Shown here in pieces: positions 16-39,686 of a stretch of 64,000 bases of DNA. A program made the translations under genes and the position numbers. This DNA is from an uncultured Thiotrichaceae bacterium (GTDB taxonomy: Bacteria > Pseudomonadota > Gammaproteobacteria > SZUA-229). How positions within the stretch are numbered: the stretch's first letter is position 1; each line of letters starts with the position of its first letter. The stretch is taken from NCBI GenBank assembly GCA_964466455.1, contig CAYXNL010000002.1:9964-73963 (forward strand), in the 5' to 3' direction. The notes under the pieces are model-generated. The model saw nothing but the letters and a program-made list of their open reading frames with translations. It did not search any database and was not told where the DNA came from.

Positions 16-1371
16 TTATAGCAGAAACAGGGTTGCCAGGCCTAGAAAAACGAACAAACCGACATTGTCAGTAATGGTGGTTAATACCACACCCCCGGCA
101 ATGGCCGGGTCAATATTCAGTTTTTGCATAACTATTGGAATTAAAACACCCGAAAAAGCGGCTACACATAGGTTAATAATAATAGCTGCCGCAATAACAA
201 TACCAATATGAACATTATGGAACCAGAATATGGTAATAGCAGCAATCACTATCGCCCAGCCGATACCGTTTAGCAGGCCGACGATAATTTCCTTGCCGAT
301 TAACCAGTTGCGATTACTTTTGCTTATCTGATCCAGCGCCAGACCACGAATAACCAGAGTGAGAGTCTGGGTGCCTGCTATGCCTCCCATGCTGGCAACG
401 ACATTCATTAAAACAGCGACTGTAACAACTTTTTGCAGGGTGTGTTCGAAATTGGACACTACCCATGATGCCATGAAGGCGGTGAGTAAATTAATACCCA
501 GCCAGATAGCGCGGCGTTTGCTACTGGGAATAATGGGTGCAAATAAATCCTCTTCCTCGGTTAAACCTGCCATACCCAGAACAGAGTGATCGGCTTCATC
601 ACGGATAACATCGACAACATCGTCAATGGTAATACGCCCCAGTAGTCTGATTTTTTCATCAACTACCGGTGCTGAAATCAGGTCATGGGTCTCGAAAGTT
701 TTGGCAACTTCATTGCTGGGTGTGCTGGCTTTGATGACCTCAGTATCACGGTTCATAACTTCAGCAACGGTCATTTCCAGATCGTGAGTGAGGATAGTGG
801 ACAATGGCAGGGTGCCGACAAAAAGATTATTGCGTGTGGTTACAAACAGGCTATCGGTGTTGTCCGGTATTTCACCAAGCAGACGCAGGTAGCGCAATAC
901 AACATCAAGTGTTACCTCGGTACGTACCGTAATAGTGTCGGTATTCATCATACCGCCAGCACAGTCTTCCGGATAGGAAAGCACCGCTTCCAGACGTTCG
1001 CGGTGTTGCGTATCAAGTGAAGTGATTACCTGTGTGGTAACACGATCGGGTAATGACTGAATAAAATCGGCCAGGTCATCGACATCCATGCCCTCAGTTG
1101 CACTCACCAGGTCATTTAAGGACATACCGTTAATCAGGGTAGAGCGGATTTCTTCCCCCAGTTGAATCAGTACTTCACCTTCTTTTTCGGGGTTGACCAG
1201 TTCCCAGATAATATTGCGTTCATTGTGTGGCAGGGATTCAAGCAAGTGGGCAATTTCAGCCGGATGTAACTCATTGAGCATGCCGCGCGCATGCTGCATG
1301 GTACCGCTATCGAGTGCCTGGGTTAGCACCTGAAGTTGTATTTCGGTTTTTTGTGAGCGATCGGGTTTCAT
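16..1371 (-). CDS. mgtE: Magnesium transporter MgtE
   Basis: 451-aa ORF. The N-terminal soluble region resembles MgtE-N/CBS and the C-terminal domain is hydrophobic with about 5 TM segments and a MgtE-like ending (GGxV...TDxxGF). Confidence 0.8.
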   Translation of the reverse strand: MKPDRSQKTEIQLQVLTQALDSGTMQHARGMLNELHPAEIAHLLESLPHNERNIIWELVNPEKEGEVLIQLGEEIRSTLINGMSLNDLVSATEGMDVDDLADFIQSLPDRVTTQVITSLDTQHRERLEAVLSYPEDCAGGMMNTDTITVRTEVTLDVVLRYLRLLGEIPDNTDSLFVTTRNNLFVGTLPLSTILTHDLEMTVAEVMNRDTEVIKASTPSNEVAKTFETHDLISAPVVDEKIRLLGRITIDDVVDVIRDEADHSVLGMAGLTEEEDLFAPIIPSSKRRAIWLGINLLTAFMASWVVSNFEHTLQKVVTVAVLMNVVASMGGIAGTQTLTLVIRGLALDQISKSNRNWLIGKEIIVGLLNGIGWAIVIAAITIFWFHNVHIGIVIAAAIIINLCVAAFSGVLIPIVMQKLNIDPAIAGGVVLTTITDNVGLFVFLGLATLFLL

Positions 1372-1437
1372 GACGGCGCTGAATCAGTTTATTTTATTTT
1401 TGCGGAGTCTATCATGTCATTATCCGCATGTTGTGAC

Positions 1438-1578
1438 TTATTACTGAAACGGATAAAAAGATGCTTATTGTTCAAAACACGCGGTGAATACCTCCATGTA
1501 AGTTCGATACCCGCATCCCTGCGGCTGACGGTCTTGAACAATAAGTATCCTTTTCATCCATCCTGTTAGTAATTATGG
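1438..1578 (+). repeat. ~140-bp imperfect palindromic intergenic repeat (MITE/ERIC/Correia-like), copy 1, more degenerate
   Basis: About 85-90% identical to 27771-27910 by eye. Shares the core cccgcatccctgcggctgacggtcttgaacaataagtatcctttt, and its arms (gataaaaagatgcttattgttca / tgaacaataagtatcctttt) form a long stem. It lies between the ptsI stop and the mgtE start. Confidence 0.7.
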
Positions 1579-1596
1579 CAGATAAAGGCTGGATAA

Positions 1597-3372
1597 TCAG
1601 TGGCTGATATTTAATTGACTGTTAAACTTCTCAATTTCTGTATCTTCATACAAGGTTAGAATAGTGCTGGTTTTCTGTTTTAATGTCTTTACATTACTTT
1701 GTAGAATAATGTTTTTTATTTCCAGCAGGGAATTTGCCTGTACACTGAAGTATTTCAGTCCCATACCCAGAAGCAGTCGTGTATATTGGGTGTCACTGGC
1801 CATTTCACCGCACATGGAAACAGGAATATTTGCTTTGTCACCTGCCTGAATGACTAGTTGAATAAGCTTTAGAACCGCTGGATTTAATGGGTTATAAAGA
1901 TAATTAACTTCCTCATCAATGCGGTCGATTGCTAATGTGTACTGGATTAGATCGTTAGTACCAATGGAGAGAAAATCCATATGTCTGGCAAAGGCATCAA
2001 TAGACAGGGCGGCAGCGGGTACTTCTATCATTGCACCGATGGGCATATTTTTATCAAAAGCCTGTTTGCGTTGTTTGAGGATGGTTTTTGCTTCATCAAT
2101 CAGGTTCAGTGTCTGATGGATTTCTTCAACATTGGTTAACATAGGAATCATCAGTCGCACCGGGCCCAGTGCCGAAACGCGCAATATAGCCAGTATCTGT
2201 GGTAAAAAGGCCTGTGGTTCTTTCAGACAGCGACGGATGGCACGCAGACCCATGGCCGGGTTGTGTGCCATAGGACCCTGATTAATGGTGTCCTGAATTT
2301 CCTTGTCAGCACCTAAATCCATGGTGCGAATAGTAATCGGTTTCCCTTTCAGTGCGGTAACCGCGCGCCTGTAGGTTTTAAAATGGGTGTTTTCATCAGG
2401 CCATGTATTGAGTTCAATAAACAGCATTTCTGTACGGTAAAGTCCGACCCCGGTATCATCATATTTTTTAATGATCTTAATATCACTCGGTCGGTCGATA
2501 TTTCCATGCAGGGTAACATTAACTTTATCCAGTGTTGTTGCTGGCTTGCCAGCCAGGTTATTGAGCAGTTTACGCTGTGTAAGTTGATTGCGGCGCAGGC
2601 GCTTATAGTGTTTAAGTGATGCCTCATCAGGGGTGTTGATTACCACACCTTTGGAGCCATCCATGATGATTTCTTCATCCTGATGAATTAATTGCCGGGC
2701 GTGGTGCAGGCCAACGATTGCGGGGATCCCCAGGTTCCTTGCCAGAATAGCAGTGTGGGACAGGGGACCACCATATTCAGTAATAAACCCGGCAATCCGC
2801 TGATGCTGAAACATAATGGTATCAGCCGGTGTCAGGTCGTCAGCAACGATAATCTTACCTTTTAGTTCGTCTGTTTTATGCGGTTGGCTAATATTGTAGT
2901 CATTTTCAACCAGGCACTTCTGAATGCGGTTAACAACATGCAGAACATCATCCTTACGAGTTTTTAGATAAGGGTCTTCCATCTCATCGAAGACCTGTAT
3001 CAGGCGTTCGGACTGTAGATGTAAGGCCCATTCAGCATTGCATGAGTTTTGCCTGATATTGGCAATGGTTCCTTCGTTGAAGGCCGGATCTTCCAGCATC
3101 AGCAGGTGGGTATCGATGAAGACAACAATATCTTCCGGTGTATTACTGGATATCTGTTTTTTGATAGCATGTAGTTGCCGACTGGCATTGGTCAATGCTT
3201 TTTTAAAGCGGGCTATTTCGGCATTAATCTGTGACTTGTCGAGTGTTTTTTGTGTGACATTAATCTGTTCGCGCGCAATGATATAGGCACGCCCGGTGGT
3301 TATGCCTTTTGAAACACCTAATCCGCTTATATATATACTCAAATGAATACTCTTTAACCTGAATTTTAGCAA
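1597..3372 (-). CDS. ptsI: Phosphoenolpyruvate-protein phosphotransferase (PTS enzyme I, no GAF domain)
   Basis: 591 aa. N-terminal phosphohistidine region (GLHARPA-like ...GGxxSHTAIxAR), PEP-utilizing TIM-barrel C-terminus (IGTNDLxQYTLAxDR, CGEMA). It sits immediately downstream of an HPr gene. Confidence 0.8.
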   Translation of the reverse strand: MLKFRLKSIHLSIYISGLGVSKGITTGRAYIIAREQINVTQKTLDKSQINAEIARFKKALTNASRQLHAIKKQISSNTPEDIVVFIDTHLLMLEDPAFNEGTIANIRQNSCNAEWALHLQSERLIQVFDEMEDPYLKTRKDDVLHVVNRIQKCLVENDYNISQPHKTDELKGKIIVADDLTPADTIMFQHQRIAGFITEYGGPLSHTAILARNLGIPAIVGLHHARQLIHQDEEIIMDGSKGVVINTPDEASLKHYKRLRRNQLTQRKLLNNLAGKPATTLDKVNVTLHGNIDRPSDIKIIKKYDDTGVGLYRTEMLFIELNTWPDENTHFKTYRRAVTALKGKPITIRTMDLGADKEIQDTINQGPMAHNPAMGLRAIRRCLKEPQAFLPQILAILRVSALGPVRLMIPMLTNVEEIHQTLNLIDEAKTILKQRKQAFDKNMPIGAMIEVPAAALSIDAFARHMDFLSIGTNDLIQYTLAIDRIDEEVNYLYNPLNPAVLKLIQLVIQAGDKANIPVSMCGEMASDTQYTRLLLGMGLKYFSVQANSLLEIKNIILQSNVKTLKQKTSTILTLYEDTEIEKFNSQLNISH

Positions 3373-27148: not shown

Positions 27149-27745
<597 letters not shown>

Positions 27746-27770
27746 TTACCTGTAATGGCTGGTGAATTAA

Positions 27771-27910
27771 TTATTACTGAAACAGATAAAAAGGATACTT
27801 ATTGTTCAGGACACGCTGTTAATACATCCATGTAAACTCGACACCCGCATCCCTGCGGCTGACGGTCTTGAACAATAAGTATCCTTTTTATCTATCCTGT
27901 TAGTATGTGG
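27771..27910 (+). repeat. ~140-bp imperfect palindromic intergenic repeat (MITE/ERIC/Correia-like), copy 2, best preserved
   Basis: Arms gataaaaaggatacttattgttcagg and cttgaacaataagtatcctttttatc pair over about 24-25 bp. The internal mini-hairpin is CCGCAtcccTGCGG. It is A-rich before and T-rich after the stem on both strands. It lies between the yraN stop and the diaA start. Confidence 0.7.
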
Positions 27911-27913
27911 CTA

Positions 27914-28294
27914 TTAAAACGCATTTTTTATCCAGTTGAAAGTGTAGTTTACATTGTCCGGATGGAACTGACTGCGTTCTGCTGAAGGCGACATGGCGAC
28001 AACATCGAACCGGGCAACTGGGAATTGTGTATGCTGTTGCAGGTATAACTCGGCCGTGCGTCTAATTTTCTGCTGCTTTTGCAGGGTAATGCTTGCTTCA
28101 GCCCCACCGAATGTATCATTTTTACGAAAACGCACTTCAATAAAAACCAGATTTTTTTGATCCAGCATAATAATATCTATTTCACCCAGGCGACAAAGGA
28201 AGTTTTTTTCCACCAGCTTCAGACCCTGTTCTTTCAAATAGAGATAGCAGGCCTGCTCTGCCTGTTCTCCCTGTTGTAGATGCTGCGCTTTCAA
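27914..28294 (-). CDS. yraN: UPF0102 family protein YraN (predicted endonuclease fold)
   Basis: 126 aa with the motif GEIDIIM...LVFIEVRFR, in the conserved position between lpoA and diaA. Confidence 0.75.
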   Translation of the reverse strand: MKAQHLQQGEQAEQACYLYLKEQGLKLVEKNFLCRLGEIDIIMLDQKNLVFIEVRFRKNDTFGGAEASITLQKQQKIRRTAELYLQQHTQFPVARFDVVAMSPSAERSQFHPDNVNYTFNWIKNAF

Positions 28295-30264
28295 TGCTGC
28301 ATGGGGGCTGGCTGTACAGATTTGATTACAGGTGTAACGGTATTGTCTGTACTGGAAATTATTCCGTCTTTCTGCGTGGGCAGGGCTTCAATTTTAATTT
28401 CAGGTTTTATATAGACGGCACGTCCGTTAATAAATCTGGCCCATAACAGGTGGCGTATAATTCGCCCATTTTTATCCAGCTGGATATTACCGGTTGCTCC
28501 GGAAAAACGCGCAAAATTATTTTCATGCAGGTATTGAAGATTAAACAGTAGATGGTAAGCATCAACTCCCAGTGCAAACAGACGGGTATAACGTTGTTGA
28601 TCGGGCCAGTTTGTTTTGAATATCTGTTTTAGTCGGTTCATGTTTTCTGCCATCTTACTATCAGATTTTGAGTTTTCCAGTACCCAGGGCATGTCACAGA
28701 ATAACAGACCGTCCAGATCGTTATCACGGCTAACATCTGGGGTTCCGGTATAAACGCTTGATGTAGCGTATACCGGCAGGGCACCTGCATGATGAAATCT
28801 TAATGAAGGAACAATACCGCGGGCAGATCGGGGAGTGGCTGCGATAAAAATCATATCTACATCATGTCTGCGATAAGGCATAAATTTTAATTTTTCACCC
28901 AATGTATCTTGAATTCTATGGTATCGCATTGTACTCTGGTCGAGATTAAACAGCCGTCGTATGGGGCGGGAAAAATCGGCACTGGTGCTGGAATAGTCCT
29001 GTGTTGCAATAACATTGCCGCCAAGTTGTTCAAAATAGGCAGAAAATGCATTTTGAATACGTCGTCCCCAGTTATTGTCCGGTGCCAGTATTACCACTTT
29101 CTGCTTACCCTGGCGTATTGCCAGTTCTGCTACTTGCCGGGCTTCATCTTCCGGAGACAGGCCAAACTGAAAAAGATTATTCGTTTGCATCTGAGGGTTG
29201 TTACTATAATTTAAGGTCAGCACCGGTATGGGTAAATCATGTTGTTGCTCAAGTTTGCTGATAAGTGTTTTATCAAGTGGCCCGATAATATTCGTTGCAC
29301 CATCATCAATAGCCTGCTGGAGGAGTTGGCTAAAGGAGACATTTGGGTCGGCTGTATCATAAAACTTGAGGGTCGGTCGTGTTGTTGCATCGTCATCCGT
29401 ATAGTAAGCACTTAATAGACCATTTTGGATGGTTACTGCGGCACCAGCAAATTTGCCCTGCTGGGGCAGTAGTACAGCAATGCGTTTCACTTTTATTGCG
29501 GTGGCGGTGTAGTCATCAATCAGGTGTGATAAAAATATATTGCTGACTGGCTGTTGTGGATGGCGAGTGCCCCAGTCCAGTACTGCATTTTCAACTTTAT
29601 TGATATTACGCTGTCCCTGTGAACTGAAGTTGCGCATAATACGTGCTAGATCTAGCCAGGCCAGGATTCCTGGATCCGTTGAAGTCTCCTGTTCTAAAGC
29701 AGTCGCAGACATACTCGATAAAACCGTCCAGATCTGTTCGTTATTTTTGAGCCTGGCATCGGCAGTGTCGAATTGTGTTTCAAGTTCCACTCGTGTTTTC
29801 ACTGCACGCATTGAATAACCAAGGGCTGCATCAATATCGGCGAGTAGTATTTTTGCCTGTAATTGACGTGATTGACGTAGACTACCTGTTGGTGGTAACA
29901 GGGTAATTGCCTTTTCCGGATTATTTTCTGCAAGAGCTACTCTGGCCGCCAGCAGACGTGTTTCGCCCATAATTGCGGCATCGGGTTTCATGCTATCGAG
30001 TATTTTGCCAGCGGATTTCAGATCGTGTTTATAGTAAAACAGCCGGGCAGACCTGAGAAGTAGTCTCTGGCGTTGTTCACCGCGAATTTCATTTGCCTGT
30101 GCTAAAGCCTGATTAGCCATATCACCCAGTTCGGCGGGGGTCATTTTAGACAGCGTTTCAGTATCCAGCGGTGTTGTGTTAATTTTTTTTAACGGGGAGA
30201 TGCTGCAGGCGGACAGAAAAATACAGCAACAGAAAATGAGACGTTTTAAAGTTTGTATATTCAA
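28291..30264 (-). CDS. lpoA: Penicillin-binding protein activator LpoA (outer-membrane lipoprotein)
   Basis: Large TPR-like N-domain plus a periplasmic-binding-protein-like C-domain. Divergent from rsmI as in E. coli. Putative TTG start at 30264 gives the lipoprotein signal MNIQTLKRLIFCCCIFLSAC. The track ORF (to 30600) overlaps rsmI and is over-extended. Confidence 0.7.
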   Translation of the reverse strand: MNIQTLKRLIFCCCIFLSACSISPLKKINTTPLDTETLSKMTPAELGDMANQALAQANEIRGEQRQRLLLRSARLFYYKHDLKSAGKILDSMKPDAAIMGETRLLAARVALAENNPEKAITLLPPTGSLRQSRQLQAKILLADIDAALGYSMRAVKTRVELETQFDTADARLKNNEQIWTVLSSMSATALEQETSTDPGILAWLDLARIMRNFSSQGQRNINKVENAVLDWGTRHPQQPVSNIFLSHLIDDYTATAIKVKRIAVLLPQQGKFAGAAVTIQNGLLSAYYTDDDATTRPTLKFYDTADPNVSFSQLLQQAIDDGATNIIGPLDKTLISKLEQQHDLPIPVLTLNYSNNPQMQTNNLFQFGLSPEDEARQVAELAIRQGKQKVVILAPDNNWGRRIQNAFSAYFEQLGGNVIATQDYSSTSADFSRPIRRLFNLDQSTMRYHRIQDTLGEKLKFMPYRRHDVDMIFIAATPRSARGIVPSLRFHHAGALPVYATSSVYTGTPDVSRDNDLDGLLFCDMPWVLENSKSDSKMAENMNRLKQIFKTNWPDQQRYTRLFALGVDAYHLLFNLQYLHENNFARFSGATGNIQLDKNGRIIRHLLWARFINGRAVYIKPEIKIEALPTQKDGIISSTDNTVTPVIKSVQPAPMQH

Positions 30265-30323
30265 GATACTATGTATATTGTAATTAATGTCAGGAAGGTG
30301 AAGTATGTTTTGTAGGGCTGATT

Positions 30324-31178
30324 GTGTCAATTGAAATCTTACCGGGAAAGCTTTATCTGGTGGCAACACCGATAGGAAATCTGGGTGATATAAGTCGTCG
30401 AGCCATTGAGATATTAACAGAAGTTGACATCGTTGCTGCTGAGGATACTCGCCATAGTCAGAAACTGTTATCCTACCTTGGTATATCGCCCCGCATGATA
30501 GCCTGTCATGAACATAATGAAGATCAGCTTGGTCCAAAATTAATTGGCTGGTTGCAGCAGGGTAAGTCGATAGCGCTAATCTCCGATGCCGGTACACCAC
30601 TGGTTAGTGACCCTGGTTACCGGCTGGTAAAGCTGGCGCATCATCATGATATTCAGGTTGTGCCGGTACCGGGAGCCTGTGCTGCGATTGCAGCATTAAG
30701 TGGTGCTGGGCAGGCAACCGACCATTTCTGTTTTGAAGGTTTCGTACCGGCAAAGTCAGCGGCACGGGTGCAGGTTTTTGCAGCACTGAAGTACGAAAGG
30801 CGTACGATGATATTCTACGTATCCTGCCATCGTATCAGAGAAACACTGGATGATATGGTCGCCGTACTGGGTGAAAACAGAAATATTACCTTTGCTCGTG
30901 AAATAACAAAAACATTTGAAACAATTCGGTGTACAACGCTGGCGGCGTTACGCCAGTTTGTTGCCGCAGATGAAAACCAGCGCAAAGGTGAGATCGTGCT
31001 GGTGCTTGAGGGTTGTCAGCAGCCACCGGATAATAACACCCAGACAACAAATTTTCTGAAAATCCTGTTGCAGGAGCTGCCGGTTAAGCAGGCGGTTTCT
31101 TTTGTAGTAAAAATGACCGGTGCCAATAAAAATGAAGTATATAAAAAAGCGCTCGCCTTAAAACAGGAACATGAATAG
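30324..31178 (+). CDS. rsmI: 16S rRNA 2'-O-ribose C1402 methyltransferase RsmI
   Basis: 284 aa, tetrapyrrole-methylase fold (LYLVATPIGNLGDIS, AAEDTRHS), with a GTG start. Confidence 0.85.
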   Translation: MSIEILPGKLYLVATPIGNLGDISRRAIEILTEVDIVAAEDTRHSQKLLSYLGISPRMIACHEHNEDQLGPKLIGWLQQGKSIALISDAGTPLVSDPGYRLVKLAHHHDIQVVPVPGACAAIAALSGAGQATDHFCFEGFVPAKSAARVQVFAALKYERRTMIFYVSCHRIRETLDDMVAVLGENRNITFAREITKTFETIRCTTLAALRQFVAADENQRKGEIVLVLEGCQQPPDNNTQTTNFLKILLQELPVKQAVSFVVKMTGANKNEVYKKALALKQEHE

Positions 31179-39306: not shown

Positions 39307-39686
39307 GGAGCTGGCCAGGCAATCGCGCCTGTTAGTTGTACCGGTTTATCCGGTATCAATGATGCAGGGGAGGAAAGTCCGGGCTCCGCAGGACAGAGTG
39401 CCAGGTAACGCCTGGGAGGTGAAAACCTACGGAAAGTGCCGCAGAAAATATACCGCCTGCTGTCTCATCGTAAATGGCAGGTAAGGGTGAAATGGTGTGG
39501 TAAGAGCGCACCGCGCCATTGGCAACAATGGTGGCAGGGTAAACCCCACTCGGAGCAAGACCAAATAGGGGAACATAATGCGTGGTCCGCGCTGTTCCCG
39601 GGTAGGTTGCTTGAGGTGCATGGTGACATGTTATCCAGATGAATGATTGCCCTGGACAGAACCCGGCTTATCGGCCAGCTCCTTCT
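39307..39686 (+). ncRNA. rnpB: RNase P RNA, bacterial type A
   Basis: Near-identical universal blocks to E. coli M1 RNA: GGAGGAAAGTCCGGGCTCC, CAGGGTGCCAGGTAACGCCTGGG-like, GGTAAGGGTGAAA, GTAAGAGCGCACC, CGGAGCAAGaCCAAATAGGGG, GAACCCGGCTTATCGG. P1 pairs 5' GGAGCTGGCC with 3' GGCCAGCTCC. The spurious ORF 39436..39642 lies inside it. Confidence 0.85.

Follow-up and report, generated by a model that had tools for sequence, protein, structure and literature searches.

We analyzed a 64,000-nt stretch of DNA from an uncultured Thiotrichaceae bacterium (hereafter, the window), in which two copies of a short palindromic repeat lie 26 kb apart. Copy B occupies the spacer between a yraN-like and a diaA-like gene, and copy A lies between a ptsP-like gene and mgtE. 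Our analysis gives good support to the view that this repeat is a 130-bp non-autonomous transposable element (MITE, for miniature inverted-repeat transposable element) that has been recently active and inserts into TA dinucleotides, and equally to its membership of a superfamily that ranges across Gammaproteobacteria and takes in the YPAL/RU-2 repeats of Yersinia. What is new here is a YPAL-superfamily element with new arms, a different insertion signature and a new host group. The explanation that we favor as a whole, and hold to be probably correct, is that of a TA-inserting MITE of the YPAL superfamily whose core is kept as an RNA-level module of the CsrA type. The features that we refer to are as follows, in window coordinates.

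27774-27903, minus strand: copy B, the complete 130-bp element (filled- and empty-site alignment; 124.2 bits with model R1)
27772-27773, no strand: TA duplicated at the target site, on the side of copy B nearer to diaA (empty sites in loci L086 and L087 have a single TG or TA)
27904-27905, no strand: TA duplicated at the target site, on the side of copy B nearer to yraN (empty-site alignment, flank statistics)
27784-27812, no strand: left inverted arm, one half of basal stem P1 (5' or 3' according to the strand read)
27865-27893, no strand: right inverted arm of basal stem P1
27810-27867, minus strand: 58-bp core, conserved across Gammaproteobacteria (alignments; YPAL/RU-2 homology; Ysr224 and TwoAYGGAY matches)
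27845-27858, minus strand: predicted hairpin P2, CCGCA-GGGA-UGCGG, with a GGA tetraloop
27823-27834, minus strand: predicted hairpin P3, UACA-UGGA-UGUA, with an AUGGAU loop (AYGGAY type)
1441-1569, minus strand: copy A, 129 bp, between the ptsP-like gene and mgtE (96.9 bits with model R1)
1439-1440 and 1570-1571, no strand: TA flanks of copy A (from locating the element ends)
27149-27736, minus strand: SIS-domain DiaA/GmhA-like gene downstream of copy B, with its start codon 35 nt beyond the TA duplication
27914-28294, minus strand: YraN/UPF0102-family gene upstream of copy B, with its stop codon 8 nt from the TA duplication
28291-30600, minus strand: LppC/LpoA-family open reading frame (ORF)
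1597-3372, minus strand: phosphoenolpyruvate-phosphotransferase (ptsP-like) gene beside copy A
16-1371, minus strand: mgtE, beside copy A

A first-pass annotation of the window had claimed a repeat of about 140 bp at 27771-27910 and 1438-1578, in the same orientation, and this is confirmed at 88-90% identity: copies A and B agree at a mean column identity of 88% in a MAFFT alignment, and an ungapped 117-nt stretch (1455-1571 versus 27789-27905) is 90% identical in the same orientation. The 41-mer motif which that annotation had proposed for searching occurs exactly twice in the window and in none of 100 shuffles, and when the 64 kb are searched with the family's covariance model, copies A and B alone come up. 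Copy boundaries were set by empty-site comparison. The arms of copy B, described earlier as reverse complements, are indeed so over 29 nt each, with 97% complementarity, and the small internal hairpin noted in the loop region is CCGCA-TCCC-TGCGG at 27845-27858. The outer ends had been said to mirror each other as well; here the terminal 10 nt (TTACTGAAAC vs CTAACAGGAT) prove weakly inverted, matching at 3-4 positions only, and it is the subterminal arms that are complementary. Together with its flanks the element takes the form TA-TTACTGAAAC...CCTGTTAG-TA. Folding of the two strands, a check that had also been proposed, gave -54.9 and -59.5 kcal/mol, far more stable than shuffled sequence (z = -8.6 and -9.3). 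The strand that would carry the GGA loops, which we call the sense strand, is the minus strand in both copies, the same as that of the flanking genes; on it the core of the window element reads GACCGUCAG-[P2]-GUGUCGAG-[P3]-...GCGUGUC or, with the hairpins spelled out, GACCGUCAG-CCGCA[GGGA]UGCGG-GUGUCGAGUU-UACA[UGGA]UGUA-UUAACAGCGUGUC. The G+C content of the window is 44.7%.

Mobility can be read from close relatives that lack copy B. The yraN-diaA spacer measures 177 nt in the window versus 45 nt in L086 (DiaA 97% identical), 45 nt in L087 (95%) and 49 nt in L088 (85%), where L numbers denote the loci sampled. On the minus strand, the filled site reads ...CCACA[TA]CTAACAGG...GTTTCAGTAA[TA]ATTAATTCACC, and the empty sites read ...CGGCA[TA]ATTTACCCACC in L087 and ...CCGCA[TG]ATCAATTCACC in L086. 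Compared with these, the window spacer shows a precise gain of 132 bp, namely the 130-bp element and a duplicated TA, so that the target-site duplication guessed at in the first-pass annotation was correct. The same signature recurs through the family. Among 37 distinct related copies whose ends were located without assuming TA (median element length, 130 bp), 28 have TA on both flanks, against an expected frequency of 0.0045 (p ~3e-58). No dyad symmetry is present at the yraN-diaA empty site. As close relatives are without copy B, its insertion is recent and probably near neutral. Copy A is present in a 97% relative (L210) and missing from a 96% relative (L211); its presence in L210 indicates that it is older than copy B, which fits its lower model score (96.9 vs 124.2 bits). 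The L211 allele is an unclean empty site, in that L211 2879-3000, set against window 1372-1596, holds about 30 nt (GACATCATGCCGACAGGATCCTGGTGCAAT) not in the filled alleles.

Other members show the element in various states. Decayed, truncated and core-less copies are present in the family, and at L067 300-358 there is a core-less 48-bp mini copy in which the element ends are joined directly and the TA flanks are kept. In L089 (9762-10000; GCA_054016175.1; DiaA 85%), the yraN-diaA spacer is 239 nt of unrelated sequence without a model match, and appears to have been altered independently. Copies of the HyVt-448 type (L002 7223-7380, L007, L062) have longer arms and ends of the form C-TA-AATACGTGTTCC...GGAACACGTATT-TA-G, which suggests a subfamily that inserts into CTAG with duplication of TA. 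CTAG is the target preference of IS630, and TA duplication is typical of IS630/Tc1-type enzymes. We sought a cognate transposase or full-length insertion sequence by way of solo element ends in the sampled loci and found only solo, decayed, truncated or core-less derivatives, in a sample too small to weigh; likewise, no candidate enzyme was found next to any copy. An IS200/IS605-type element, considered for the TTAC at one end, was rejected, as the empty sites are without TTAC and TA is duplicated.

To survey the distribution of the family, we searched the central 21-mer in one genome per species, which returned 82 loci and none that were enterobacterial. One related Thiotrichaceae metagenome-assembled genome (MAG) has about 28 exact matches which, with 13 further model matches in sampled loci, makes at least 41. 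Other matches fall in many uncultured Gammaproteobacteria and in some Chromatiales, Alteromonas, Aestuariibacter and Cellvibrionaceae; a single Acidovorax match lies inside a coding region and looks like chance. In total, the model has 235 distinct matches, spread over 162 loci of many genomes and metagenomes; the elements are short (130 bp), non-coding, dispersed and multi-copy. The filled and empty sites and the many copies per genome bear out the first-pass description of a dispersed, non-autonomous, MITE-like element. Members often lie less than 400 bp apart. The 28 adjacent pairs comprise 17 divergent, 9 tandem and 2 convergent ones, and the divergent excess is significant at p = 4e-4 after duplicate removal (15-17 of 26-28). 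Copies A and B of the window are too far apart to count as an adjacent pair; examples of close spacing are L078 2269-2600, L082 5541-5887, L101 5771-6065 and L114 431-1231, the last a tandem run of four. A BLAST search of the window element against the PLSDB plasmids returned no match. Plasmids H3-H17 (e.g., NZ_CP067312.1 71600-71763) carry a YPAL-like sequence, with 75% identity across 98% of a 168-nt query; they are mostly conjugative, come from Escherichia, Klebsiella, Citrobacter and Shigella, in many cases from wastewater, and have no annotated feature beneath the match. Carriage on such plasmids could allow the family to spread horizontally.

Alignment of the family separates two modules, a division that we regard as well supported: lineage-specific inverted arms, forming a basal stem of about 30 bp, and a 58-bp core that is nearly constant between orders. 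The arms are wholly different between lineages yet complementary, and the basal stem P1 covaries strongly across lineages; the junction nucleotides of the core are almost invariant. Pairing was examined in a 64-sequence alignment with a hand-specified structure, in which 90.2% of the cells were paired, versus 68.6% in shuffles and 33-43% when the partner was slid by 1-3 columns, with double changes at 31 of 45 pairs. Since the first genome search fixed P2 by design, a second, independent search of metagenomes was anchored on P3 and the 3' junction and followed by a model search. Among the 103 distinct copies ascertained in this independent way, 101 keep the NGGA loop of P2 on 22 different stem sequences (for instance CAGCCGCA/UGCGGCUG, CAAAAACA/UGUUUUUG, CACCCGCA/CGCGGGUG and CAGCGCCA/UGGCGCUG); the loop types include AUGGAY (45), AGGGAY (~30) and AAGGAY (6). 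The GGA of the P3 loop is kept in 58 of 64 copies from a set without selection on P3, and the P3 stem covaries, with UACA/UGUA set against CCCC/GGGG (UA 39 and CG 10; AU 44 and CG 9). In two enlarged members (L062 3360-3535 and L004 3164-3336), about 55 nt inserted in P2 would form extra GGA-loop hairpins (GUACAGGGACGUAC, GGGCAGGAUGCCC).

At the level of sequence comparison, these patterns show a core held under purifying selection as a double hairpin. Judged from the kept NGGA and GGA loops, the covarying stems and the repetition of GGA in the extra hairpins, the selected object is a predicted hairpin pair that presents CA-NGGA-YG, or its complement on the other strand, and is held by conserved junctions.

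Which known family this core belongs to was a question that the first-pass annotation had answered in the negative, recognizing no such family and naming a match to an already described one as something that would count against its proposal. YPAL, the Yersinia palindromic sequence, was reportedly described by De Gregorio et al. in 2006 (J Bacteriol 188:7876). By core alignment, the core of our element (about 58 nt) is homologous to YPAL/RU-2, and the arms are without similarity; judged by the annotation's own standard, this part of its proposal fails. As given by Delihas in 2007 (PMC2759123), the RU-2/YPAL repeat of Yersinia pestis is 168 nt long and contains ...CGTCCGCGCCAAGGATGGCGCGGCTCGAGCCTACATGGATGTATTTACGGCGTC..., and RU-2 aligns through the core, with ...CGUCCGCGCCA-AGGA-UGGCGCGGCUCGAGCCUACA-UGGA-UGUAUUUACGGCGUC... 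in RU-2 against ...CGUCAGCCGCA-GGGA-UGCGGGUGUCGAGUUUACA-UGGA-UGUAUUAACAGCGUGUC... in the window; a shared 28-nt stretch is identical in some copies (e.g., L036), and copy B differs from it at four positions. Model R1, which was built from non-enterobacterial copies only, matches canonical YPAL on the GGA strand with 67.8 bits (E = 4e-18) and a Pantoea copy with 49.4 bits. The canonical YPAL copy (L213 1501-1668, Y. pseudotuberculosis pYPSE1-1) in turn scores 133.9 bits with the Rfam family Ysr224 on the strand opposite the GGA loops, and the Ysr224 consensus holds the same core on the opposite strand. From the core alignment, the R1 match and this strand relation, we take the closest known family to be YPAL/RU-2, which is Ysr224 read on the other strand. 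Ysr224 has been described as a multi-copy, temperature-responsive small RNA (sRNA) of Yersinia (PMC9029176, PMC12112432).

Like YPAL, the element is multi-copy, intergenic, non-coding and mobile, forms a long hairpin, is caught in filled and empty sites in close relatives, and often lies just after stop codons. Unlike YPAL, it is 130 bp rather than 167-168 bp long, its arms and termini are unrelated in sequence, it has a strict TA duplication, and its host is Thiotrichaceae-like rather than Yersinia or Pectobacterium. YPAL has no terminal TA and shows duplications of 3-26 bp near dyad symmetries (PMC2229807, Delihas 2008); it has also been reported to be co-transcribed with upstream genes, possibly affecting the stability of their transcripts (PMC2229807).

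The Rfam check that the first-pass annotation had proposed against known RNAs came out clear at gathering thresholds, with nothing for the element in the window or in 17 other loci, and less so below them. A relaxed search gave TwoAYGGAY (RF01731) on the minus strand over the full model (31.6 bits, E = 0.0017, gathering score 43) and, on the plus strand, Ysr224 (RF02770; gathering score 70), with 19.8 bits for the window and 31.8 for the best member, L044; in L044, TwoAYGGAY scores 27.7 bits, again below 43. The only match at gathering threshold anywhere in the window is RNase P RNA class A at 39307-39686 (+), with 331 bits. TwoAYGGAY is an RNA motif (Weinberg et al. 2010 PMC2864571) whose loops have been proposed as CsrA sites (Gardner & Eldai 2015 PMC4333381; Li et al. 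2026 bioRxiv 10.64898/2026.09.22.753630). It resembles our element in having two sequential hairpins on one basal stem (folds, pair counts), in the literal AUGGAU of the P3 loop and the AUGGAY of about 45 of 103 family P2 loops, in its many copies in Gammaproteobacteria, and in variants that bear additional GGA hairpins. In both, divergent arrangements predominate among adjacent pairs (17 of 28 here versus 68.4% in Pseudomonas, a figure from the same preprint). The two differ in the window P2 loop, AGGGAU, whose second position is a purine, and in the junctions, which depart from the Rfam consensus; in the literature as accessible, no target-site duplication or empty site is reported for TwoAYGGAY. 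It is a structural look-alike that fails the Rfam threshold, and the link to it is looser than that between YPAL and Ysr224. Our literature search found no paper naming TwoAYGGAY together with YPAL or Ysr224, a full-text search with the core sequence found no paper, and the 2026 TwoAYGGAY preprint makes no mention of MITEs, Yersinia or target sites.

The first-pass annotation had likened the repeat to ERIC, RUP and Correia elements, and the comparison stands for architecture and TA duplication. Like these TA-duplicating MITEs (ERIC/IRU, Correia/NEMIS, RUP), which are thought to be mobilized by IS630/Tc1-type transposases, our element is small, non-coding, intergenic and multi-copy, has a long stem-loop, and would be co-transcribed with neighboring genes. 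Unlike them, it has its conserved part in the interior while the arms drift, and it shares no sequence similarity with them. For ERIC, which E. coli genomes carry, the likeness fails by sequence: blastn at word size 11 against 5,426 complete E. coli genomes gave no match, so the element is not ERIC. Several resemblances were set aside. The ERIC1R primer shares 10 nt with the element (ATGTAAGCTC), out of line with the rest of ERIC and without an E. coli BLAST match; a likeness to 16S rRNA over 13 nt (GCGGTGAATACGT), present in some copies, fails in the family consensus and was treated as chance; and hammerhead and other three-way-junction ribozymes were rejected on inspection of the junctions, the CUGAUGA/GAAA core being absent and no Rfam ribozyme matching.

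The host is not an enterobacterium, contrary to what the gene names of the first-pass annotation imply. Among named relatives, the closest are an uncultured Thiotrichaceae MAG and, for proteins, 'Thiotrichales bacterium' MAGs, and contigs identical or nearly identical to the window come from host-associated or metagenome data (GCA_006240755.1, GCA_006240895.1, GCA_054033155.1 and JGI 3300022695), for which a literature search returned no describing paper. The exact DiaA-like protein sequence is found only in metagenome-type or host-associated assemblies (GCA_006240755.1, GCA_006240895.1 and a Logan run), and the neighbors of the gene in those exact-match assemblies are sspB, sspA and cytochrome bc1 genes. 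The LpoA-like ORF at 28291-30600 encodes 769 aa from a GTG start that was called mechanically, versus 611-617 aa in relatives with single calls of 691 and 756 aa; the true start probably lies further downstream than that of the longest ORF.

We turn to what the core may do. In the explanation that we favor, a transposase acting in trans would move the element into TA sites, and the core would be retained as a predicted protein-binding module of the CsrA type, as others have suggested for the look-alike TwoAYGGAY RNAs. Read on the GGA strand, P2 and P3 would present CA-NGGA-YG loops 20 nt apart, and two loops about 20 nt apart are the geometry bound by a CsrA/RsmA dimer. The motifs themselves are CA-GGGA-UG and CA-UGGA-UG, at this spacing. 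The CsrA consensus from in vitro selection (SELEX) is RUACARGGAUGU, and P3 (UUACAUGGAUGUA) matches it at 11 of 12 positions; the RsmE consensus is A/UCANGGANGU/A, and both the P2 (GCAGGGAUGC) and the P3 (UUACAUGGAUGUA) loops fit it. As in the sRNAs CsrB, RsmY and RsmZ, GGA would sit in hairpin loops with flanks matching the high-affinity consensus, and two sites lie about 20 nt apart; in contrast to them, each unit has two sites only, belongs to a dispersed mobile repeat, and has strongly conserved junctions. This consensus fit, the 20-nt spacing, the extra GGA hairpins of the variants and the TwoAYGGAY precedent are why we favor a CsrA-type role. Further points of likeness are the match to TwoAYGGAY over its full model, the excess of G-U over A-C pairs in P1 on the GGA strand, and the mostly divergent adjacent pairs, which Pseudomonas TwoAYGGAY shares. 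That the core specifically is an RNA-level binding module for a CsrA/RsmA-type protein is a serious but tentative possibility, to which we would give somewhat short of an even chance.

Copy B would lie in sense orientation inside an lpoA-yraN-diaA transcription unit, and on this view it would add to the mRNA a duplex of 29 bp, probably open to cleavage by RNase III, and a pair of GGA hairpins, lying upstream of the diaA start codon by about 70-95 nt. Between the end of the element and that codon are 37 nt (35 nt of original spacer and the TA), and the native leader stays in place downstream. An effect on transcript processing, stability or translation would be expected, and classical termination would not; a consensus scan found nothing promoter-like or terminator-like in copy A or B.

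Several observations weigh against this reading. Covariation of the arms is equally expected of transposon inverted repeats and does not prove RNA structure, and the outer 10 nt of the element ends are poorly inverted. In the alignment fitted by the model, wobble pairs on the GGA strand favor G-U over A-C in P1 (132 vs 70), but no such asymmetry is seen in P2 (31 to 27) or P3 (31 to 49), so that a role at the DNA level is possible. Between co-directional genes, as given by crude ORF calls, antisense placements of the GGA strand outnumber sense ones by 29 to 15 (p = 0.049). Conservation of the core junctions goes far beyond what known CsrA sponges would require. The TwoAYGGAY score falls short of threshold, and canonical YPAL is without a TwoAYGGAY match at E <= 1. 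Ysr224, the only RNA of the superfamily detected by experiment, is annotated on the UCC-loop strand. A tblastn search for csrA in 1.58 Mb of scattered loci found none, with about 0.6 matches expected by chance, a sample too small to weigh.

Alternatively, the core may be a transposition signal in DNA, its cruciform or single-stranded hairpins being recognized by the mobilizing enzyme or a host factor and its likeness to CsrA sites being coincidental; the arms would then only need to pair. We judge this unlikely, while giving it real weight. It would account for a core that stays constant while the arms, the ends and the duplication type change (TA here, 3-26 bp in YPAL, PMC2229807), for the almost invariant junction nucleotides, and for core hairpins that show neither G-U over A-C strand asymmetry nor a sense-orientation bias, and the frequent divergent pairs recall repetitive extragenic palindromic (REP) doublets mobilized by hairpin-recognizing transposases. 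However, known TA-duplicating transposases act at the element termini and not at the center, and the core-less mini copy, a single case, keeps its ends and TA flanks. The variable number of extra GGA-loop hairpins is also easier to reconcile with multivalent RNA-protein binding than with a fixed recombination site, and a candidate enzyme was found next to none of the copies.

The first-pass annotation had instead seen in the stem an intrinsic terminator on either strand that would insulate diaA from read-through from lpoA and yraN, and on our evidence this is improbable. The hairpin is very stable on either strand, the upper stem has a T-rich run (TTTTTATC) after it on both, Correia and ERIC elements have been reported to affect termination or mRNA stability, and YPAL is reported to be co-transcribed, with a possible effect on transcript stability (PMC2229807). 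Against this, the consensus scan has no terminator-like site in 27500-28100 or 1250-1750, the supposed loop is a branched core of 52-58 nt enclosed by the stem, and in the full hairpin the T-run is taken up in pairing. In relatives that lack the element, the spacer is 45 nt long and free of terminators, which implies that yraN and diaA are normally co-transcribed and that insulation is not needed; copy B is a recent insertion and probably not an evolved insulator. Nor would termination explain why the core is conserved from order to order and the stem sequence can vary freely. There is virtually no chance, finally, that the two copies reflect a local segmental duplication or fortuitous similarity rather than a mobile family. 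The window does hold two copies only, but the 235 model matches in 162 loci, the exact end of the similarity at the TA flanks, the differing presence and absence among close relatives, and the failure of any shuffle to reproduce the match all speak otherwise.

Taken alone, copy B is one more bacterial MITE insertion, and a probably neutral one. The family has wider implications. In classic MITEs the terminal repeats are conserved and the interior drifts. Our element inverts this usual pattern, as its arms, ends and duplication type vary and a 58-bp GGA-loop double hairpin stays nearly constant, from Yersinia to sulfur-oxidizer-like and marine Gammaproteobacteria. It ties together YPAL/RU-2, Ysr224 and, more loosely, TwoAYGGAY, which stand apart in the literature searched. 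For this class, the TA duplication and precise empty sites are direct evidence of transposition, a point that the 2026 TwoAYGGAY preprint describes as unresolved. A practical caution for annotation is that counts of the Ysr224 'sRNA' in genome surveys are counts of a repeat. If the GGA hairpins bind CsrA, the element would be a mobile means of rewiring or titrating a global post-transcriptional regulator. A bolder extension, which we consider doubtful, is that TwoAYGGAY, Ysr224 and YPAL/RU-2 form one ancient mobile superfamily carrying a double-hairpin CsrA/RsmA decoy as cargo, in effect a dispersed mobile sponge. Were this true, a further transcript would acquire a high-affinity CsrA site with each transposition, and the antisense excess would reflect selection against CsrA sites inside operon mRNAs.

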